NCBI GenBank assembly: GCA_964255285.1
Contig: CAXUUL010000030.1
Span: forward strand, 1 to 55,960
Direction: 5' to 3'
Length of the DNA: 55,960 nucleotides
DNA from: Ionaspis alba
Taxonomy: Eukaryota
The notes beneath the pieces were generated by a model that made no database searches, was not told the origin of the DNA, and saw only the letters and a program-made list of their open reading frames with translations. A program made the translations under genes and the position numbers. Position 1 is the first letter of the stretch. Each line of letters starts with the position of its first letter. Shown piece after piece: positions 15,611 through 51,218 of this stretch.

Positions 15611-15710
15611 NNNNNNNNNNNNNNNNNNNNNNNNNNNNNNNNNNNNNNNNNNNNNNNNNNNNNNNNNNNNNNNNNNNNNNNNNNNNNNNNNNNNNNNNNN
15701 NNNNNNNNNN
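15611..15710. other. Assembly gap (100 N)
   Basis: Run of 100 N. Confidence 1.
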
Positions 15711-18381: not shown

Positions 18382-18481
18382 NNNNNNNNNNNNNNNNNNN
18401 NNNNNNNNNNNNNNNNNNNNNNNNNNNNNNNNNNNNNNNNNNNNNNNNNNNNNNNNNNNNNNNNNNNNNNNNNNNNNNNNN
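18382..18481. other. Assembly gap (100 N)
   Basis: Run of 100 N. Confidence 1.
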
Positions 18482-32378: not shown

Positions 32379-32478
32379 NNNNNNNNNNNNNNNNNNNNNN
32401 NNNNNNNNNNNNNNNNNNNNNNNNNNNNNNNNNNNNNNNNNNNNNNNNNNNNNNNNNNNNNNNNNNNNNNNNNNNNNN
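32379..32478. other. Assembly gap (100 N)
   Basis: Run of 100 N. Confidence 1.
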
Positions 32479-34797: not shown

Positions 34798-34897
34798 NNN
34801 NNNNNNNNNNNNNNNNNNNNNNNNNNNNNNNNNNNNNNNNNNNNNNNNNNNNNNNNNNNNNNNNNNNNNNNNNNNNNNNNNNNNNNNNNNNNNNNNN
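34798..34897. other. Assembly gap (100 N)
   Basis: Run of 100 N. Confidence 1.
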
Positions 34898-36957: not shown

Positions 36958-38716
36958 ATGCCATTGTCTCTACTCACAGCCCATGATGCTACTGATCATG
37001 TCCATCTCATCGTTGGATCGAATCCTCTCGCCAACGCCAGATGTGCTAAGAGCATCGAGGTCGGAGCGAAGCCTATAGTTGTTGCGCCAGCTGATGCGCA
37101 AGTCCACTATGCTCTGCAGAAGAAGATCGATGACGGAAATGTCCAATGGGTGCAAAGGGCATTTGAAGATGCAGATCTCAAAACAATGGGGAGGGGAGAT
37201 GTTGAGAATGTTGTGGATGCCGTCTTTGTGACATTAGGTGGAAAACACCCTACAAGTACGAAATTTTGGGACTTTACTCTGCAACCTCAATTGACCACTA
37301 CATTCAGGTACACATATTTCCACCCTGTGCCGAAGACTACGCATTCCAGTCAACGTCACCGATGCTCCCAATCTATGCACATTCACCTTGCTGTCGACTC
37401 ATTCAGATGGACCTCTCCAGATAGGTATCACAACATCAGGCAAAGGGTGCAAGCTAGCCTCACGCATACGGCGGGATGTCGCTGCCTCGCTCCCACCAAA
37501 CTTCGGAGCAGCAATTGATCGGTTGGGTAGTATGCGCCGCAGAATATGGGAGGAAGATCATCGACAGCACGAGCTCGCGGATCCTGCGCCGGACAATTCG
37601 GACGACGAAAGTACAGGTCAGAAGTCGACGTTCAATCAATTGATCAGCGAGTCGGATCACAATGCTGCCAAGACTCGAAGAATACGGTGGCTTTCTCAGA
37701 TCTGCGAGTACTGGCCATTGAAAAGGTTGGCTGCTATCACGGACGCGGACATCGACACCGTTCTGAGATCCTATACAACCCCTGACTCGGGAATCTCGTC
37801 TTCGCTTTCACCGTTGTCCAATGGGTCGAAAGATACTTTCCAGTTGCCGTCAAAACCTCTCATCATCTTAGCCGGTTCCGGACCCGGCTCGCCCGATCTC
37901 CTAACTCTCGCCACCCACCGCGCCATTCAATCCGCCTCGATAATCCTTGCGGACAAGCTCGTCCCAGCACCTGTCCTCGACCTCATCCCTCGTCGTACAC
38001 CCATCCACATAGCTCGCAAATTCCCTGGTAACGCCGACGCCGCGCAACAAGAGCTGCTCGAACTTGGCCTCGAGGCACTGAAGAAAGGAATGACAGTCCT
38101 CAGATTGAAACAGGGTGATCCCTACATTTACGGACGGGGTGGAGAGGAGTACTCCTTTTTCCGAGAGCAAGGTTATACTCCAATGGTTCTACCTGGAATC
38201 ACAAGCTCGCTCTCAGCACCGTTGTTTGCCGCTATCCCACCAACACACAGGAGCGTCGCAGATCAAGTCCTCATCTGCACTGGTACAGGGAGAAAGGGAG
38301 CTGCGCCATCGCCACCACCATATGTCAAGACGCAAACGGTCGTCTTCCTGATGGCACTTCATCGCCTGTCGTCACTTATCGACTCCATTACGGGTTCCGG
38401 CCCTCTGGATGCATCCTCAGATTCTCTACCAAACCCCTCTCCGTGGCCGAAGAATACTCCCTGTGCAGTCATTGAAAGGGCGTCCTGTCCTGATCAGCGT
38501 GTCATCCGAAGTACACTGCAGCATGTCGTTGCGGCTGTTGAGGAAGAGGGAAGTCGGCCGCCAGGACTCCTGGTAGTTGGTTGGAGCTGCGAGGTCTTGA
38601 AGGAGACTGGGGGTGCCAAATGGCTTCTGGAGGAAGGTTTTGCTGGGTTTGCGGAATTAGTTGCAGAGCCGCAGAGCATGATGCAGATGATGGAGGACGT
38701 GAAGGTGGCTGTATGA
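36958..38716 (+). CDS. MET1: Uroporphyrinogen-III C-methyltransferase (siroheme biosynthesis, fungal Met1 type)
   Basis: SLLTAH..HLIVGSNPLA, then the tetrapyrrole methylase motifs LAGSGPGSPDLLT, LRLKQGDPYIYGRGGEE, LPGITSSL and VIERASCPDQR. One intron near 37256-37307. Confidence 0.92.
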
Positions 38717-38881: not shown

Positions 38882-40123
38882 TTACAGATCTGACCGCTTT
38901 CTAGCCCTTTCTGTAACCACTCCTCTCAATCCCATCAACCCCAACCACACCGCCTCCTCAGTCCTAATCGTCCGACTCCCTTGCCCCGGACAAAGGTCGA
39001 CCCACCAATCAAACAGCTTCTCCGGCTCTTTGACGCCTATGCTTACTAATTCCTGATCCGCCTTCACCGCCACCTCCAGCCCCGCAACGCCTCCGAAAAC
39101 AACCAGCATATGTTCATACTCAGGTACAGCGGATTCATCAGCGGTAAGAGAGGAAAGCGGCCTCCCTCTTTCTGATGTCCCGACCGTGAAATCGTAACCA
39201 CCAGGGAAGGTGCACTCCGTCAAGACAGCCGAAAGTGAAGCGGCAGTCCGCACAGCATAACCCCAGTAGTATCCAGCCTCCTCGCGAGGAGCAGACGGCG
39301 CAACGGGGTCGGCCGTGAGGGACATGTGGGCAAGATCGGGAGGAGCGTTCGCGGTGGGGAATTTCAGCGTCACCCGTGTATAGGGCGGGATGTCTGCTGC
39401 AACCGAGACTGGCTGGGGGAGACCGACGTCCACGAGTGTAGCGGTAGTGGGATCATCGCTGGTAGATTTGCGCTTCTTTTGCTTTGAGATCTGGGCCGAG
39501 GGAGCGTGCTTTTCGAGCGTCACACCTTCTCGGTACTGACACCATTCGTGAGCTCGTAGGTGGTGCGGCATGTCGAGACTCGGCAATGTACCTGCAGTAC
39601 GGAGGTCTGGATGAAGTGGGAAGAGGTTCTTGCGGAGGTGGGGCGGGGTTTCGAGGTAGGCGAGGAGGTGGGAGAGGAAGTAATTTGGGTCGGAGTAGCC
39701 TGTGTATTCGGATGTGGTTGAGGCATGCTGCAGACATGATTGGTGAGATTGGTGGTTCCTGGGGGTGGAGGCTTGGCCATCGTCAAAGATAACGATTTCG
39801 TCGACGCAGAAGACGGCTAGGGCGCGGGCGATTTGGCCTGCTAGAGAGGTTTTGAGGTCGTGGGACTGAGCACTGAGAGAGTCTTGCGTCAGTCGGCAAA
39901 GAAGCAGCGGTAGACGAGTGGTTTACTTGGATATTATGCTGCCAGGTAGGGCAATGCTCAGGGTATATTTGCGTCCGCAGGAGGGAGAGAAAATAGCTGT
40001 CGGCTTGCTGGTGTCGACAGATATCTCGGCCGCAGATCCGGTTTCCCGCTTTCGTTTCTGTATGACTTAGCGCTACAGCTTTACTCGGGGTGGGCACCTT
40101 ACCTTCGTATTAGTTGGACCCAT
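38882..40123 (-). CDS. SPOUT-family RNA methyltransferase (SPOUT1/C9orf114, DUF171-like)
   Basis: Spliced MGPTNTK|KRKR..TLSIALPGSIISN|AQSHDLKTSLAGQIARALAVFCVDEIVIFDD..YLETPPHLRK..GYYWGY..GTSERG..PGQGSRTIRTEEA. Confidence 0.9.
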
Positions 40124-41217: not shown

Positions 41218-42570
41218 ATGTCGGAGTCCAATGAGACCAATAGCAAAGGTGCAGGCTCTGAACAGATTGGTAATACTTCATGTATGCTTGCTGAACTCTT
41301 TGTATCTTGTTCCGTTCGGCGTTGTCGTTTCTCTTCCTCGTCATCTGGCTGGCGATGTTGTTGCAGTGCAGTCGAGACTCCCAAATAAGTTGATCAACTA
41401 GTTGTTACTCTTCCATTATTCATTCAGATATATTGATGCCTCTCATCCTGATTTTTCCCAGCAAATCCCGAGAATACCGAAGCTCTTCCCACGCAAGAAG
41501 AATGGCTAGGCCTGATCTCCCAAGCCCAACGAAGGCTTCCATCTACGGATCAAGTCTACAATGCTCCGGAGCCGGGGACGATTGAATTCGCTCAGTATAT
41601 TGACCACACGTTGCTGAAGCTGGACGCCACTAAGGAGCAGATTGATCAACTATGCGACGAAGCTAAGAAGTACCAATTCAAAGTATGCCGCTTTGCAAAC
41701 TGCTCCCGGAAAAAATGTGACACGCTTCTTGCTAAGATTCCGGAAAGTCCGTCTGCGTTCGTCTACCATGGGTCTCGCACGCCGTCTCCCTCCTTCACGA
41801 CAGCTCCGTCATCGTCGCTTGTGTCATAGGTTTTCATGAAGGTACGCATGCCACAGCGGAAAAGGTAGTGTAAGTCCTGCCTCTTTTTCTTGATGGCTCA
41901 TCGATTGTATCAGCTCAACAAAGAGTCATAGTGAAACACAGCAGGCCCTTCAAGCCGGCGCCTTGGAGCTAGACATGGTGCTCAACCATCCTCTGCTCGC
42001 CTCCAAAGCTTATCAATCCGTGCACGCCGACATTCTTGCCGTCCGAAATGCAGCACCGCCACCAACAGTGCTGAAAGTCATTCTCGAGACTTCGCAGCTA
42101 TCCAGGGAAGATATCATCGCAGGTTGCGTGATTGCAAAAGCTGCTGGTGCAGATTTCGTGAAGACGAGCACAGGGTTCTGTGGGGCAGGAGCGACTGCGG
42201 AGAATGTAGCGTTGATGAAGGCAGTTGTTGGAGATCAGATCGCAGTCAAGGCTAGCGGAGGAGTAAGGACAGCGGAGGACTGTGTGCGGATGATGGAGGC
42301 AGGGGCTGGAAGGATAGGGGCTAGTGCTGGTGTGGCGATTATGCGGGNNNNNNNNNNNNNNNNNNNNNNNNNNNNNNNNNNNNNNNNNNNNNNNNNNNNN
42401 NNNNNNNNNNNNNNNNNNNNNNNNNNNNNNNNNNNNNNNNNNNNNNNATGGAGGCAGGGGCTGGAAGGATAGGGGCTAGTGCTGGTGTGGCGATTATGCG
42501 GGAGGGGAAACAACAAAAGGTGAATGAGCACGACGACAAAGATAACAAGATCACCGAAAATGGATACTGA
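41218..42570 (+). CDS. deoC: Deoxyribose-phosphate aldolase (DERA), spans an assembly gap
   Basis: IDHTLLK, ACVIGFHEG, ELDMV, LKVILETS, FVKTSTGF, VKASGGVR and RIGAS. Probable first exon 41218-41269 with intron 41270-41461. Ends ..ENGY* at 42570 once the duplicated gap flank is collapsed. Confidence 0.92.
42293..42502. repeat. Identical 55-bp direct duplication flanking a 100-N gap (42348-42447); assembly overlap artefact
   Basis: 42293-42347 equals 42448-42502 (atggaggcaggggctggaagg...attatgcggg). Confidence 0.9.
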
Positions 42571-42876: not shown

Positions 42877-44165
42877 CTAAACCCCCAGCGATTCTGATAT
42901 TGTTCGGTCCTCCTTCGCAATCACGTTCTGCTTCTGGCTAGCACGTTTCTTAAGCACGTTCTCTATGAACGCTTCACCTGCTTTATACGAACTTCTGACC
43001 AAGGGCCCACTAGCACAGTAGAGGAAGCCCATATCAAGAGCTCTGTCCCGCCATAGGTCGAAGGTAGCTGGGGTGACGTATTCGTGTACTCTCATGTGTT
43101 GTTTGGTCGGACGCATGTATTGTCCAAATGTTACAACATCGACATCAATCTTTCGCAATGCTGTGACTTGATCAGTGACGATATAGCCAAACGACCGAGC
43201 TTTCAGATCGTACCTTTCAATGTTTCCCAGAGCTGCTCCTCAGTCTCGCCCAGTCCTAGCATTATACTCGTCTTTGTGATCAATCGTCCCTGACTAGCTT
43301 TCTTCGCCTTGTCTAGAACTCTCAAGCTCTGTCGGAACCCAGCTCTTCGATCTCGAACCATCGGCGTCAGCTCCTCAACAGTCTCAACATTGTGCGCATA
43401 GACGTCCAATCCGCTTTGAGCAACACGCTCGACCATGTCTAGATCTCCAGCATAATCTCCAGTCAGAGCTTCCACAAGCATACTCGGCGCTTTCTGTTTT
43501 ATCTTCATGATCGTTTCCGCGAAGTGTGAAGCCCCTCCATCCGCCAAATCATCCCTGTCCACAGAGGTCAGAACGACATAACCTAGTCCCCATCTCGAAA
43601 GTGCTTCTGCGGTATGTTCTGGCTCATGAGGATCGAGTGGTGGAGGAGCACGAGACGTCTTGACAGAGCAGAAACGGCATCCTCGAGTGCAGGTGTCCCC
43701 CATCAGCATGATTGTGGCTGTTGCTGCAGCTTTGTCGTTTCCGCCCCAACAATCCGAGATGTTGGGACACCGTGCCTCTTCGCACACCGTATGCAGATTC
43801 AATCCCCGCAAGTCCGACTTGATCTTTTTGTAATTGGAGTTGTCCGGTATGGGAGTTTTGAGCCAGTCAGGGAGGCGTGTGATCTCTTTCTTCTTGCCTG
43901 CGGGGCCAACCAGGACGGTACGGAGTTCGAGGGCTTCTGAGGATGGGAGCTGTGAGGACGGAGTGGGAACAAAGGAAGAAAATGAGGGCCCACTATTCAG
44001 ACGATCTTGGAATGTTGTACGAGGTCGAGTAGTTGTTTGGTCCGTTGCTGATGGTTCGGAGGCAGCGGTGGCGAGTGTTCGGGAGATTGGCGAGACGAGA
44101 CCGTGGAAGGTATGCCTAGGAGATAAAGCGGAAATATACCGCAGTCTAGGAGCTTTCGTAGCCAT
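42877..44165 (-). CDS. LIP5: Mitochondrial lipoyl synthase (radical SAM)
   Basis: [41 protein letters not shown] and [12 protein letters not shown]. Intron 43213-43161. Confidence 0.96.
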
Positions 44166-44568
44166 TGCGGAGACGAGTAAAATATACGTGGAGGAGGGCG
44201 CCTGGACTGGAGTGAAACTAATTCCTCGAGATCCAACAGTAATTCAAATATGACGCTTTATGCGGGTGCGACTATTAACGGCTTTGGGGCTAGATCAGAA
44301 ATGGAAAGGTCAGCTCAATTGCTTTGAACCCTATCTCTTCCGCGCCTCCAAAACGCGATCAAACCTTGAGCTGTGACGATTCAACCTCTTATCACGAAGA
44401 CGTTCGCTTTCTATAGGGACAGAGCAGTATGATATATACACAACAGCAGCTTTGACTACGGATTGCCATCTAGTGTTCCTTCGCCTCCCCAACCACCCCA
44501 ATTCGTCAGTCGTTTTGCTTCCTGGTACCACGAGAGTCAACTCATTAGGAAGATGGCTTCCATGCCAA

Positions 44569-45455
44569 TTAGAAAGGCAGATTCATTTCTTCGACACCCG
44601 GTTCTTGCTCATTGATCTTACTCCCACTCTCGTCAAGACAGCTTTTGATGAATCCCACAGCGGTCTCTACCCAGATCTTTTGACTAGGCACAAAATGCCC
44701 TCCCGGATGCGTTATTGTCCTCTCTTCTGATTTCTCACAAGACCCGATCAACAGCTTCCCTCTCTGTTCATCCAACACAGTATCTAGACTTCCCACAAAA
44801 TGTAGCACAGGTGTCTTGATCTTCGGTTCGTAGAAGCCAGAGTAAAGGTCGAAAGGGGCAGCAAATCCGGAATAGATAATTGCAAATTTCAAAGGCGGCT
44901 GTATGGGCTCTTGGTTTCGTTTTACAAAGCACGAGGGATAGAGGAACTTTCCACTCTCCTTGGCTCCTGCTGCTTCGAAGCTTTGGCGTCTCCCGGTTTC
45001 AAGCAGAGCGGCCACCATTGCTGCAATTGCCCCGCCTTGCGAAAAACCTATGGCACCATCAAAAGGGCCCTCAGCTTGGATAGTCTCCGCGACTCGTTGC
45101 AGCCCTCGATCAATGCCTTGGTACACTGGAGCTCCCTCTTTTCGCTGCCACCAACCGAAAGCTTCTGCCTCCTCCGGGTTGGCGCCATTGGACATCTCAG
45201 AAGCACTGGATCCAGGAACATCACCTGGTCGAAGGGCGATAGGTCCAGTAGGATAGTGTAGCGTAGAGCAAGGAAAGGCCTTCATGAGACTCTTCTCTAG
45301 CGCTCGGGTCTTTGCATGGAAAAGCGTGCCAGATTGAGTGTAGCCTGATAAATATTGTATCAATAAGATCTGCAGCGAAAATTTCTGTGGAATAGTATGG
45401 AATGATTACCATGAAGCATCAGAATCTTCAACCCTCTGGCCTTTTCCGCGGACAT
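44569..45455 (-). CDS. FSH1/OVCA2-family serine hydrolase
   Basis: LKILMLHG|YTQSG (intron 45409-45345), GPFDGAIGFSQGG, HFVGSLD and HPGGHFVP. Confidence 0.9.
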
Positions 45456-45920: not shown

Positions 45921-46734
45921 TCAGTGTGACAGCACAGTTTCCAACATTTCCATAAATGTCCCATCCCTTTCGTCTGATCCTTCCCTTACATATCCAGAAA
46001 ACCAGGTAGATTTTGGGGAAGGCTCGATCAGGTTATCGCCATACATTGCAGAGATGGGGATTGTCCGAACGCTGCGCTCTAAGTCAATAATTTCGCACAT
46101 TTCCCGAAGGTTAACATACTGTTTTGAATCCACTCCCCTCATGCGCAACATTGTAGCTGTGTCCCCTACAATTCTGTGGAAACTATCCTCAGACCAGTCC
46201 AGCTTGTCCCTATATTCCAGGTTTGTGAGCGAATCATCACACCTCGTTAAGCACAATATAGATAACCTACATCTTATTGACTACCACAGTGAGATCTTTG
46301 GCACGCCTTAACGCTCCCTTGTCGGCAGCAGCATCTTGGTTCCTTCCACCTTCCTCTAGAGCCTGCAGAGGGATACTTGCATCTATGATGTAGATAACAT
46401 AATCGGCATCACCACTCACTGTGGTTGTGTCAGCTCGCTGAAAGACACGAAGCTTGGCAAATGACCTTACTATTGAGCTTAACGGTACATTTCCTAGATT
46501 GAAAAGTGAGTGGCACGCGACTCTCGTTGAAATATTCCACGACCTTGTCATAAGCGGCAACACCATCTTTCTGCATTTTCTCCAACATTAACATATCGAC
46601 TCCTCCACACTGATCATGTATCAGCCCGTAAGACGAGAACTGGTACTGATCACGATTACTTTGTACATCAAATTGCCCACAAATGTCCTCTTCCCTGCAC
46701 CGTCAGGTCCAATAACTCTGACAATTTTTGACAT
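45921..46734 (-). CDS. Stand-alone, divergent eEF1A/HBS1-like G-domain protein (~200 aa; probable pseudo-GTPase)
   Basis: Exons 46734-46660, 46609-46471, 46418-46271, 46209-46120 and 46071-45921 splice into an open 603-nt frame: MSKIVRVIGPDGAGKRTFVGNLMYKCGGVD..LEKMQK..ADYVIYIIDAS..LTVVVNKMDKLDWSEDSFHRIV..VRTIPISAMYGDNLIEPSPKSTWFSGY..GTFMEMLE. This is colinear with eEF1A domain I. Confidence 0.78.
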
Positions 46735-46873
46735 TGTATGCAGCAAAGAGCCAAAAGATCGAAGAATCGATATATTATATGTATATTGCCGTAAGTCATA
46801 TATCAAATATCTATGTAGGCGTATTGGCCTACTGATAGTTACCAGCTATACGAAATTTTAGACGAGGAGGCCC

Positions 46874-46882
46874 GTCACGTGA
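46874..46882. promoter_or_regulatory. Palindromic E-box (GTCACGTGA) in shared divergent promoter
   Basis: TCACGTGA at 46875-46882, between the two divergent ATGs (46734 and 47173). Confidence 0.3.
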
Positions 46883-47172
46883 GTAGGGCGGTAATTGCGC
46901 GCTAAACCTCATCAAACCCCGGCCAGCGCAGAAGGCTGATTTGTGTAACCCCAGGTCCATATTTTGGGGCAAATGACGGGCTGTGTACTGGCCCCTCAGT
47001 TGTTCGACGGTTTTCATGTGGTCCATGGGCGCCTATGGGCACTCAGCATTACCCCTCAAGTCAACGTTCCTTTTGATCCAACTCTGCTTCCACATTGATT
47101 GTATTTGCCCAGTTATTTGGGATCGTACTGTTTAACACTATCCTTGGTCCATAAATTTAGACAACGCACCAC

Positions 47173-50100
47173 ATGAAAAAACTTAGCAAGATTTTCCGGA
47201 AACCTCCGAAACAACAAACGCATGAAGAACAATATGGACTGTTTCCACTCATGGATGTAGTATCTGACAGCACTACCAACAATAATTACGAGGTCGATAT
47301 TGTCGCCATTCATGGACTCAATGGCGGTGCTCGGAAGACATGGACACACAAGAATGGCACTTTCTGGCTGCAAGAACTCCTCCCACAATCTATGCCTGGC
47401 GCAAGGATTTTCTCCTATGGGTATCCTTCTGAAGTATTCAATCAATCTGTGGCCGAGATTCGGGATTATGCTAAGCACCTGTTGAGCTCCCTGATGAATG
47501 CGCGACAAAGCGATGTGAGTGTTCTATAATTGTCGCGTTTTAAGTCCTTCTCATATATTATTTACAAGTTAAGGAACAACCACGTCCGATCATCTATGTT
47601 TGCCATAGCCTCGGAGGTATTGTGTTCAAACAAGTGTGTACAAAGCCGCCTAGAATCTAGAATCTTGTTACAGGAAACTCATGGACACAATAGGCAATGG
47701 TTATTGCACACAATTCGTCTCGTCGATTTCCGGAGATTGAACTATGGAGCAAAGGAGTGATATTCCTAGGCACTCCCCACCGAGGGAGTAGTTCTGCAAA
47801 TTGGGGGAAGCTTCTTGGGGATATTGGCAATGCTGCTTTCTACGCCTCAGGTAGTAGTGCGTTGGTCGGCAAATTCAAGACACCGCTACTTCAGAATCTG
47901 AGTCAAAACTCGGCCGAATTGCGCACTATTGCGGATTCTTTCACGGAACGAGGCAGTACGTTCTATATCGTCACATTCTACGAGACTGTTGCCACTCCTC
48001 CATTCAACAATCCTGTATGTTGTTTTCTTATAAATAGAACATATTCGACCTCTCGTAACCCGCTTATCTGACAATGGCTATTATTGATCTATGGATTGTG
48101 CTAAATTATTGTTAGATTGTTGGCGAAGACTCGGCTGTGATAGGATTTGCTCATGAAGAGTCCCTTCCATTGTACCTCAATCACCGGCAACTGTGCCAAT
48201 TCAAGGACAAGGATGATAAGAACTATGAGCAGGTCTCTTCAGCACTTAAACGTACTGCCAGAGCGATCTTGAACAACATGAATCGGCCGGCGTCCAGTCA
48301 AAACAGCGATAGATGTACGTAATTATTATCGATATTAATAAACCTCGAAACTAAATGTGCAAATAGCATTTAATGAAGCGGAAAAAGCTTGTATCGCCCT
48401 ATTGAACACAACAGACCTTGCAGAATTTGAGGCTGGCCTCAGCCCCCAAGCAGACGGAACACTACAATGGATCCTTAACGATCAGCAGTACACGAGCTGG
48501 GTTTCAAGCACGGAAGCTCGGCTTTTATGGGTTACCGGCTATCCTGGCTGTGGAAAAACCATTCTGGCATCTTATATTGTCCGTCATCTTGCGGAACGTT
48601 CCCAACCTGGAGTTATTACATGCCGTTTCTTCTGTGACAACAAAAGGGAGAAACATAGAGATGTCTGTGCTTTGTTACGAAGCTTAATTTATCAGATCAC
48701 AGCATGCCGCAGGGGGATGCTTAAACTGGTCAGAAGAGCCTGTGATTCTCAAGGCTTTCAGCTGTTCAATAGATTTGAAGCCCTTTGGAACCTGTTCTTA
48801 CAGATAGTACGCGACAAGAGAATTGGTTCGATCAATATCATCATTGACGCCATCGATGAGTGTGATCAGAACACACAGTTCACGATCATCGAGCGCATAG
48901 TTGAACTACTCAACGTCTGCGCTTCAACATCAGTCAAAGTTTGCATAACCAGTCGGCCAGTTAGAACTGTAACAGCCGCAATCCAGGGGTCTCAATCGCA
49001 GATTCTTCAGCTCCAACTTGAAGATATGCACGACGTCATTGGTCATGATGTGAATTTGGTGATTCGTCAGCGTATGAAAGAGCTAGTTCGAAAAGGCATA
49101 TGCAAGCCTTCCACCAGTGCTCATGTTGAGCAGGTTTTGGTTAGCAAGGCAGACCGGACGTTCCTTTGGGTGCATTTGGTACTTCCGCTTTTCGAGGGAC
49201 GTCGACTTCTACCTGATTCTGACGTAGAACGTCTCGCAGCAGAATTGCCGCCAGACCTTGCATCTGTCTACGAGAAGCTCCTCTACTCAATCCCCCTCGG
49301 TGACCGCATTCTAGCCGGGAAGATGTTGCGAGTTTTAGTGTCAAGTGCAAGGCCGTTGAACGGCACAGAACTGGGCATTCTCTTGTTCATTACCCCTGAG
49401 ACCCGCTCCACATCCTCGTTTGTGAAGGAAGAAATGTATGATCTTGAGGCAGCACAAACACTTTTAGGGCCATTAATCCGAGTGTCGGAGTCTCGCATCA
49501 GTCTTATTCACCAGTCTTTGAAAGAGTACCTTATCGATCTTTCCCACGATCAAGGAAATCCACTGGCCAGTGTATTTGGGGTGGATGTGCAACGTGATAC
49601 GCTTCTGCTCGCGTCTGCCTGCATGCAATACTTAGGGCTTGATGAATTCGACGAGAGTATTTTCTTATTGCACGAGTCCAGCGACGAGCTTTCCGTGTCT
49701 TCCAAAGAGCTAGAGTCAAACGATGAAACCTCCGTCATTTCTTTGAACTTGGGCAATGAACACATATTCAAGGAAGACTTCGTGATTGAATCAGAAACGT
49801 GCATCGCTACGGCCATTCGTTACGGGCTTTTCGATTATGCTGCGTTACATTGGGCTTCCCACTTTGCTCAAAGCAATATCATGGCTTCATTAGAGCAGCA
49901 CAAAGCTGCTATTGCCCTTTCAAGCTTTGGATCCAATCGCCTAACCAATTGGCTCCGCTACTTTTGGAGCATGAGCGATATATGCGAGCCATACCCTTCT
50001 GTGTTTGGCCCAGTAATAGTTGCGTCATTCTTTGGTCAGACTAAAACACTTCAAATACTCTTGGAGGATGAGCAATCTCAAGAAACCGAGACTCTCGAAC

Positions 50101-51218
50101 ATGCATTGTATTGGGCGGCTCGAGAGGGGCACGAAATTTGCACTCAAGTTTTGTGTGAGCAGAAAGATATCGATTCGAATGTCTGCTTGGTCAACAATCG
50201 GTCACCTCTAGCTATTGCAGCACAGCATGGCCATTTGAAGAGTGTGCAGAAACTGATAGAGTTCGATGGCACCGATGTCAATGTACGAGGCTACCACGGC
50301 AGAACGCCGCTTTCGCTTGCCGCCGCCAGCGGAAACACAGATATTGTTTCCATCCTCCTTGCCCATAAAAGGATTATACCTGATCTTGCAGATCGGGACA
50401 ATGAAACCCCTCTTTTCTGGGCACTAGGCGCAAATTCTTTGTCGGTCATATCTCAGCTACTCGCTGATGATCGGGTGAGCCCCAATCATCTCGACAAACG
50501 AGGTAGGAACATTTTATCCTGGGCTGCAGAAGATGGTTTAGTTGATCAGGTCATCCTTCTCCTCAAACACAAGCGGGTGGACGTGGCGAATAAGGATCTG
50601 AAAGGCCGCACGCCATTATCCTATGCAGCTCAGCACGGTCACTTGGACATTGTGAAACTGCTTACACGGAGTAAACGTGCTAGTGTGTCAGAGAGGGACA
50701 TCAACGGCCGCAATATTCTGTCTTGGGCTGCCTGTCAGAAAAATGCAGCCGTGCTGAGCTATCTTCTCAAGCACGACAGTACAGGGGCAGATGTCAGTGA
50801 TGACGACGGCTGGACTCCGCTTGCGTGGGCACTGGACCCGCCTGGATATCCAGACAACTTCTCTACTCTTGTACACTCTGGACTAGTTGATGTCAACCGG
50901 AAAGACCGAGTTCACGGCCGTGCCCCTTTGTCATGGGCTGCAAGCTATGGACATCTGCACATTGTTGATATACTGATCAATGCTGAAGGGATAGACCTAG
51001 ATACGAGAGATAATAGTGGCAGGACACCACTCTCGCATGCTGCAGGCAATGGGAACCTCGGCGTTGTGAGCAGATTGATTGCCACCAAAAAGGTGGACAA
51101 AGATTTTCAGGACTACAATGGCCGCACGCCTTCAAAGTGGGCTAGTCTCGAGCATCATGACGCAGTGGTGAAAGAATTGTCGTCACAGTCAGTTGTGGAG
51201 ATTGTCAATAAAGCGTGA
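47173..51218 (+). CDS. Fungal NLR-like protein: SesB-like alpha/beta hydrolase - NACHT - ankyrin repeats (~1257 aa)
   Basis: Exons 47173-47514, 47574-47633, 47694-48014, 48116-48314 and 48367-51218. Hydrolase motifs DIVAIHGLNG, CHSLGG, IFLGTPHRGS and NHRQLCQF. NACHT Walker A GYPGCGKT and Walker B IIIDAIDEC, plus FLWV and IHQSLKEYL. About 11 ankyrin repeats (GRTPLSxAA). Confidence 0.92.

Follow-up and report, generated by a model that had tools for sequence, protein, structure and literature searches.

Few proteins of eukaryotes are as conserved and as abundant as elongation factor eEF1A. Its domains II and III hold the aminoacyl-tRNA. In GTPases, the Ser/Thr after the P-loop Lys, the Thr of G2, the Asp and Gly of G3 and the His of switch II serve Mg2+ binding, γ-phosphate recognition and hydrolysis. 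A translational GTPase paralogue that has become a non-cycling module is already known from Ski7, and in pseudoGTPases of the CENP-M type a small G-domain fold has lost its G motifs and acts as a static scaffold. Described here is a gene in a stretch of 55,960 nucleotides from Ionaspis alba (assembly GCA_964255285.1, contig CAXUUL010000030.1; the whole stretch is called the window). The gene lies on the minus strand between positions 45,921 and 46,734 and encodes domain I of eEF1A alone, with the G2 block and all of G3/switch II missing and with the G4 and G5 motifs retained. It is a member of a fungal family with the same architecture. We regard the observation and the family as solid; the function proposed below is read from sequence. 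The gene looks like a repurposed one and not like a wreck.

The gene model was built from the GT and AG sites catalogued at each frame change on the minus strand between 45800 and 46900. It contains the following features, in the direction of transcription.

46660..46734, minus strand: exon 1, 75 nt, residues 1-25, with the ATG at 46734-46732
46684..46710, minus strand: codons of the remodelled P-loop, residues 9-17 (G-P-D-G-A-G-K-R-T), inside exon 1
46610..46659, minus strand: intron 1, 50 nt, GTAATC..CAG, phase 0, between K25 and C26
46471..46609, minus strand: exon 2, 139 nt, with CGGVD, the retained switch I helices and the β2-β3 region
46419..46470, minus strand: intron 2, 52 nt, GTAAGG..CAG, with a CTGAC branch site, phase 1
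46271..46418, minus strand: exon 3, 148 nt, with β4, the shortened helix C region, β5 and the N-K-M of G4
46210..46270, minus strand: intron 3, 61 nt, GTAGGT..TAG, phase 2, within the Met codon of NKMD
46120..46209, minus strand: exon 4, 90 nt, with the D of NKMD, the W-S-E motif and helix 4
46072..46119, minus strand: intron 4, 48 nt, GTATGT..CAG, in frame and stop-free
45921..46071, minus strand: exon 5, 151 nt including the TGA at 45923-45921, with G5 (P-I-S-A-M codons at 46058-46044), the GDN..W hairpin and the last helix of domain I

The spliced coding sequence is 603 nt long, corresponding to 200 codons and the TGA, and has no internal stops. The rebuilt model thus bears out an earlier note on this DNA, which had claimed four introns of 48-61 nt and a stop-free product of 200 residues. 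All four introns are of the GT..AG type, and each has, by eye, a CTRAY-like branch site about 10-25 nt ahead of the acceptor. When the coding body was shuffled 200,000 times by mononucleotide, the frame was never kept open. The open frame has no Met ahead of the ATG of exon 1, which lines up with the N-termini of the family. With the family proteins as queries, tblastn finds matches at this locus only, including the exon 1 stretch 46731-46657; exon 2 is matched by the nearest relative, P0056, over 46612-46481 at 50% identity.

Against a profile built from 14 family members, the spliced product reaches 169.8 bits. Of the four introns, intron 2 has the least certain borders; the sequence does not fix them, as two other in-frame GT..AG pairs score 167.6 and 167.7 bits. 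Retention of intron 4 could give a form of 216 residues, with 16 additional residues between helix 4 and β6, and this form fits the family profile less well (159.6 bits). The raw open reading frame (ORF) 45921..46280 and the database protein P0001 both run through intron 4, because this intron is in frame and free of stops.

The product can be aligned by script along the entire domain I of eEF1A, with an identity of about 29%. In the P-loop, the Gly residues and the Lys are kept, and the Ser/Thr that follows the Lys in eEF1A is replaced by Arg. Also kept are YKCGGVD, two of the helices of switch I, strands β2 to β6, NKMD (interrupted by intron 3), W-S-E, P-I-S-A, the GDN..W hairpin and the final helix. 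G4 and G5 are therefore present, as residues N119, K120, M121, D122, S158 and A159. Every motif that the earlier note had named (GPDGAGKRT, YKCGGVD, NKMD, WSE, PIS..GDN and the distal W) is found in this alignment, and its description of a domain-I-only eEF1A gene with intact splicing signals and G4/G5 is confirmed by the gene model and the alignment.

Several gaps separate the protein from eEF1A. The first is a short loop in the G-K-G-S region. The second is the seven-residue block A-E-R-E-R-G-I (G2/switch I), which falls within exon 2 and is absent from the 16 other family rows as well. The third is a block of about 13 residues, A-P-G-H-R-D-F-I-K-N-M-I-T (G3/switch II); this gap spans 12-15 residues across all 17 family rows. 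Part of the helix C region is missing too. The stop codon is located at the boundary of domains I and II. Domains II and III are absent, and a tblastn search with these domains of eEF1A (229 residues) against the whole window gives no match (best E 1.9), in agreement with the earlier statement that the protein ends where domain II would begin.

PMC11790920 places domain I of yeast eEF1A at residues 1-239, the P-loop at 14-21, switch I at 36-75 and switch II at 95-110. By these borders, switch II is wholly gone from the window protein, and switch I has lost only its G2 end and the short loop. The helical two-thirds of switch I are still present. The earlier claim that both switch regions are deleted therefore holds in full for G3/switch II and for the gapped ERERGITI block, and does not hold for the helices of switch I.

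Intron 2 is located at the exact map position of the switch II deletion in the alignment. The tef1 genes of Pezizomycotina presumably have an intron just before the D-A-P-G-H codons; if so, a shift of the 3′ splice site could have produced the deletion of switch II.

In terms of chemistry, every element for Mg2+, the γ-phosphate and hydrolysis is gone from the sequence: the Ser/Thr after the Lys, G2, DxxG, the His of switch II, and helix B. By established knowledge of translational GTPases, the loss of G2, G3/switch II and domains II and III means that a normal GTPase cycle and the delivery of tRNA are lost. The window protein is thus predicted to be unable to cycle as a GTPase, to switch, to be recharged in the normal way by eEF1B, or to deliver tRNA, and the corresponding proposal of the earlier note is supported for cycling and tRNA delivery.

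The relationship to eEF1A is apparent from single pieces of the gene only at its C-terminal end. A translation that runs from exon 4 through intron 4 into exon 5 matches residues 187-236 of eEF1A2 with an E value of 1.9e-5 in a phmmer search of the Protein Data Bank (PDB), and the eleven best PDB matches to this piece are all eukaryotic or archaeal EF1A. In the same database, exon 2 alone and exon 3 alone have no matches at E ≤ 10. Pfam searches with four single-exon translations give nothing significant, with a weak match of exon 1 to ATP_bind_1 (E 0.23). A word-indexed homologue search with a 95-residue C-terminal piece, covering longer proteins only, returned 24 candidates, none at E ≤ 0.01, and the ESM Atlas gave generic GTP_EFTU clusters only. 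An HMMER search of all libraries with the C-terminal piece found 12 matches at E ≤ 0.001, the gene's own raw ORF P0001 among them. The proteins P0002, P0004, P0005 and P0008 are repetitive and score through summed weak repeats, and they were discarded.

Among the short fungal-type fragments found by HMMER is P0009 (175 residues), which has both deletions of the window gene. A search with P0009, followed by one with a profile built from 11 sequences of this kind, brought the family together. In the profile search, the 17 best-scoring rows (161-297 bits, 137-210 residues) all belong to the family; next comes P0056 at 125 bits, with ordinary EF1A fragments from about 120 bits downwards.

The profile of the family finds yeast eEF1A first in the PDB, with 105.9 bits and an E value of 1.3e-29. 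Lower scores are obtained for mammalian eEF1A (91 and 86 bits), archaeal EF1A (71-51), CysN (54), eRF3 (52) and Hbs1 (46). This ranking, together with the fungal-type Trp after NKMD, points to an origin of the family from fungal tef1. A Pfam scan covered the relatives and the single exons of the window gene. The earlier note had called for a check with the GTP_EFTU profile (PF00009), and the result is divided: all 14 family members scanned match it (best E 1.2e-14; 37.3 bits for P0056, with a gathering cut-off of 26.5 bits), and the single exons of the window gene do not.

The fold of the relatives leads to the same protein. An AlphaFold2 model of P0016, based on an alignment of 6 rows, has a pLDDT of 73.8 and a pTM of 0.76, with two of the five models above a pLDDT of 60. 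Its top Foldseek matches are yeast eEF1A chains, with an E value of 2e-12, a query TM score (TMq) of 0.66 and 30% identity. The predicted structure of P0056 (alignment of 14 rows) has a pLDDT of 83.4 and a pTM of 0.81. In a search independent of Foldseek, it matches aEF1A with a Z score of 15.3 and an rms distance of 3.4 over 173 residues, followed by eRF3 (Z 14.2), Hbs1l (Z 14.1) and Ski7 (4zke_A, Z 12.5). In both models, there is no helix at the position of helix B of switch II, and the stretch between β4 and β5, which contains helix C in eEF1A, is short and has low confidence. Judged from these models, the whole surface that contacts domains II and III in eEF1A appears to have gone together with those domains. 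The best matches by profile and by fold are thus eEF1A, as the earlier note had held, and not another P-loop family. None of the outcomes that the earlier note had named as refuting its reading was encountered.

The named members of the family include Bisporella sp. (two copies), Cadophora malorum, two Leptodontidium strains, Oculimacula yallundae, Rhynchosporium secalis, Hyaloscypha variabilis, Lachnellula arida and Pseudogymnoascus destructans. Outside the Leotiomycetes, members are found in Xylographa soralifera (Lecanoromycetes) and Lepidopterella palustris (Dothideomycetes). In comparison with three eEF1A rows, the gap at the G2 block, the switch II gap and the end point of domain I are common to all 17 family rows. 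Taken with a length of about 180-210 residues, these features serve here to define the family, and the window protein has all of them. The P-loop has undergone a shared change to G-x-x-G-x-G-K-A/R-T. An alignment of 14 members has 17 invariant columns, of which six are motif residues: G, K and T in the P-loop, N and D in G4, and S in G5. Another six motif positions are conserved at 90% or above. From these sequences, the existence of a family of stand-alone 'switchless' eEF1A G domains, conserved in at least three classes of Pezizomycotina, appears solid.

Most members are labelled in the databases as hypothetical protein, 'Tr-type G domain-containing protein' or 'P-loop containing NTP hydrolase'. 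One Leptodontidium member is labelled 'mutant elongation factor-1 alpha', and that of Pseudogymnoascus destructans 'translation elongation factor EF-1 alpha'. Members named 'elongation factor 1-alpha' could mislead tef1-based analyses. No paper on the family was found in full-text searches, subscription journals and bioRxiv supplements lying outside their coverage. A domain-I-only architecture with both catalytic switch elements excised and the base-binding motifs invariant is absent from the literature searched. Searching metagenomes with the family profile yielded 80 loci; every one is of the ordinary EF1A type, at 25-40% identity, and none belongs to the family.

A maximum-likelihood tree was calculated from 25 rows (15 family members, 5 eEF1A and 5 archaeal-type sequences), with 197 of the 272 alignment columns kept and the C-terminal-only fragments P0033 and P0043 left out. 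All 15 family rows form a single clade next to eEF1A, on a branch of 0.87 with support of 100/99. The window gene is inside this clade, apart from eEF1A, which answers the phylogenetic comparison with eEF1A that the earlier note had proposed. It is paired with P0056, again with support of 100/99. The BLAST scores follow the same order: P0056 (196 residues) has 42% identity over 179 residues (143 bits), P0053 has 37% identity (119 bits), the helotialean proteins score 80-113 bits, and eEF1A fragments score 76-78 bits. YKCGG and a D-Y in place of D-C are common to the window protein and P0056 and are thus traits of a subfamily, as they are also present in the sister. Read in this way, the sequences place the window gene in a divergent 'YKCGG' branch together with P0056.

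The intron positions give some indication of the age of the gene. In the Xylographa gene model, there is an in-frame insert directly after N-K-M, the position of intron 3. In Hyaloscypha, one model ends at the equivalent of the end of exon 4, and the other skips exactly the equivalent of exon 4. P0010, a relative from a metagenome, has an in-frame insert or read-through at the site of intron 4. The recurrence of the positions of introns 3 and 4 argues for an old, DNA-level origin and indicates that current annotations often mis-model the gene. With four introns, two of them at positions that recur in other fungal classes, a processed pseudogene is excluded; the open frame likewise speaks against a processed copy of tef1, and a reading of the sequence beyond the stop showed no poly(A) tract. 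Several members occur as full ORFs without interruption on contigs of about 1-1.4 kb; if their genes bear the same introns, these contigs would be spliced transcripts. The frames of the relatives are intact, with matching deletions and end point in the family alignment. The contention that the preserved frame and introns speak against a decayed or processed pseudogene is therefore supported.

A number of irregularities in the public records of the family were observed. The gene models are inconsistent for P0015/P0157, P0055/P0160, P0058 and P0013. The first exon is absent from both P. destructans models. The Lachnellula model is without its middle, and that of Xylographa keeps an intron. In Bisporella sp. 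PMI_857, P0045 and P0158 are near-identical copies on different contigs of about 1.16-1.18 Mb, which points to a recent duplication. P0003, slices of which were used as an eEF1A reference, is an eEF1A of 752 residues with an internal restart (residues ~62-345 repeated), probably an artefact of assembly or gene modelling.

The gene is an intact, eEF1A-derived member of the switchless family. As to the function, we lean towards the reading that its product is a non-cycling G domain that binds a guanine nucleotide statically and serves as a fixed adaptor or competitor. The residues for the base and for the α- and β-phosphates are the most conserved ones, and the shift in the P-loop is shared across the family; from these two observations we infer static binding. 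In the proposed mechanism, the P-loop, NKxD and S-A-x would hold the guanine nucleotide without Mg-dependent hydrolysis. The bound state would present the eEF1A-specific region of YKCGG and helix A* as well as the GDN..W hairpin. A partner that normally recognizes domain I of eEF1A may then meet a fixed adaptor or competitor instead of a switch. The conservation pattern suggests that the window protein has probably retained guanine-nucleotide binding. The nucleotide-binding scaffold that the earlier note suggested is likewise a putative one.

Several observations weigh against this reading, and the first of them concern the nucleotide itself. After the P-loop Lys, all 17 rows have Ala, Arg or Asp: Ala in most of the relatives, Asp in P0054 and Arg in the window gene. 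With Arg or Ala at this position, Mg-dependent binding is doubtful. G4 is degenerate in P0051 (NNMD), P0053 (NKLD) and P0055 (NKME), and the second P-loop glycine is broken in P0051. At the columns conserved at 90% or above in the 11-row core subfamily, true eEF1A rows match 31-38 of the 54, about as many as the window protein, so that much of the conservation reflects an inherited fold core. The remaining points concern the window copy and the reach of the comparisons. The spliced product of the window gene was analysed by script only, and the structure models and Pfam matches are those of relatives. The outgroups of the tree are eEF1A and archaeal-type EF1A, without rows for eRF3, HBS1 or EFL. 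Few members are as divergent as the window copy, which has 26-42% identity to the family proteins compared (26-35% to the named ones). It has A-D-Y in place of A-D-C and is without the Asp at the end of β3, ahead of the G3 gap. Finally, no RNA run is listed for the source organism in a search of sequencing runs, so that splicing and expression of this copy are predicted.

The first group of these points is also what would be expected of a nucleotide-free scaffold, in which the motifs merely brace the fold and the protein is purely a module for protein-protein interactions, in the manner of pseudoGTPases from which nucleotide binding has been lost. The loss of all Mg2+ and γ-phosphate ligands, the residues after the P-loop Lys, the degenerate G4 motifs and the equal match of eEF1A at the conserved columns, much of which would reflect conservation of the fold core, are all consistent with such a scaffold. 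On the other hand, six of the 17 invariant columns are in the approximately 16 motif positions that touch the base and the phosphates, and the P-loop has moved in a shared, Gly-rich direction, which is not the mark of drift. We consider a scaffold of this type a real but clearly less probable possibility.

The second group bears on the alternative that, in a real family, the window copy itself is a relic, drifting or disabled not long ago, and is still open by chance. Its divergence, the lost β3 Asp and the lost Cys of A-D-C, the Arg in the P-loop, the absence of RNA runs from the listing and a weak donor in intron 1 (GTAATC) would fit a relic. However, 200 codons are open over five exons, with GT..AG borders and branch sites in all four introns, and several of the odd residues are common to the sister P0056. 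The window protein keeps 32 of the 54 conserved columns and 32 of the 123 other columns, so that conserved columns are kept 2.3 times more often (the sister P0056 keeps 33 of 54 and 39 of 124). In addition, the end branch of the window gene (0.61) is shorter than that of P0056 (0.82). A relic is therefore unlikely, and an intact gene for a statically binding G domain remains the reading we prefer.

The neighborhood of the gene raises one further alternative. The features around the gene are as follows.

46735..47172, no strand: intergenic region of 438 bp between two divergent start codons, GC 0.459
47173..51218, plus strand: NLR-like gene in which Pfam detects NACHT/NPHP3_N and a long array of ankyrin repeats, divergent from the eEF1A-like gene
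44572-45405, minus strand: FSH1 serine hydrolase, the neighbor of the eEF1A-like gene on the other side
43206-44243, minus strand: lipoyl synthase
38885-39922, minus strand: putative RNA methyltransferase (Methyltrn_RNA_3)
37295-38713, plus strand: sirohaem synthase-like TP_methylase gene

The product could be a decoy of the domain I surface of eEF1A, guarded by the divergent NACHT-ankyrin NLR 438 bp away, through which toxins or effectors aimed at eEF1A would be sensed and a fungal immune or cell-death response would be set off. The head-to-head arrangement with a short shared intergenic region would suit such a pair, as would a protein that keeps an eEF1A-specific surface and has lost all catalytic parts. 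Against this, the adjacency is observed at one locus only, both genes are located amid housekeeping genes, no amyloid-type or other motif common to the two products was noticed by eye, and nothing like it is described in the literature searched. A decoy thus appears more improbable still than a relic; if true, a fungus would have a guard/decoy pair based on a core translation factor.

Little chance is left to the last alternative, a different P-loop family, such as the GPN-loop or kinase-like NTPases, with a chance resemblance to eEF1A, as the weak ATP_bind_1 match of exon 1, the lack of PDB matches for exons 2 and 3 alone and a P-loop (G-x-x-G-x-G-K-x-T) that we take to be reminiscent of nucleotide kinases are outweighed by the profile, the fold and the tree, which all side with eEF1A and already refute it.

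The eEF1A-like gene and the NLR gene are in an ordinary, gene-dense region. In the N-terminal exons of the NLR gene, an H-S-L-G-G motif is seen by eye in the ORF 47544-47660, which suggests a putative effector domain of the α/β-hydrolase type; a Pfam search with separate N-terminal pieces of the NLR gave no match. The opposite-strand and flanking ORFs of the eEF1A-like gene have no Pfam family, and no Rfam match and no notable repeats were found. The window contains five runs of exactly 100 N (15611-15710, 18382-18481, 32379-32478, 34798-34897 and 42348-42447), which are scaffold gaps or masking; the last of these breaks an ORF at about 41.9-42.5 kb.

The repurposed relatives met in the searches (Hbs1, eRF3, Ski7 and GTPBP1/2) retain three domains, and the window family has domain I only. 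A stand-alone domain I that has been maintained for long in at least three classes of filamentous ascomycetes is a natural 'minimal' eEF1A G domain. It could provide a handle on the roles of domain I outside translation and a test case for the passage from a translational GTPase to a pseudoGTPase. There is also a correction to be made in annotation, for members that are now called 'elongation factor 1-alpha' or are modelled with exons skipped or retained. In practical terms, the stakes are modest for as long as no function has been found.

Among known systems, domain I of eEF1A/Tef1 is the best match to the window family in sequence, profile and fold. The two share the YKCGG helix, NKMD with the fungal-type W-x-E, P-I-S, the GDN..W..G hairpin and a terminal L-E-A-L-D helix. 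They differ in that the window protein is without the G2 block, G3/switch II and domains II and III, helix C is shortened, and the Ser after the P-loop Lys is replaced. Rice SPL33, according to PMC5441852, is an 'eEF1A-like' protein with a role outside elongation, in cell death and defence. It is a plant protein, likened here by this description only, and a relationship to the fungal family is unsupported.

Ski7, of the Hbs1/eRF3 branch, resembles the window family in having an EF1-family G domain, an impaired cycle and a use as a binding module. In contrast to the window family, it keeps domains II and III and the switch regions, and the titles of PDB entries describe it as crystallized with GTP. 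The family profile does not list Ski7 and gives Hbs1 and eRF3 46-52 bits as compared to 106 bits for eEF1A; the family therefore does not come from the Hbs1/eRF3/Ski7 branch. With pseudoGTPases of the CENP-M type, the family has the G-domain fold in common, as found in the models of the relatives P0016 (E 2e-12) and P0056 (Z 15.3). Those proteins are of Ras-like descent, whereas the window family descends from a translational GTPase and has kept G4 and G5.

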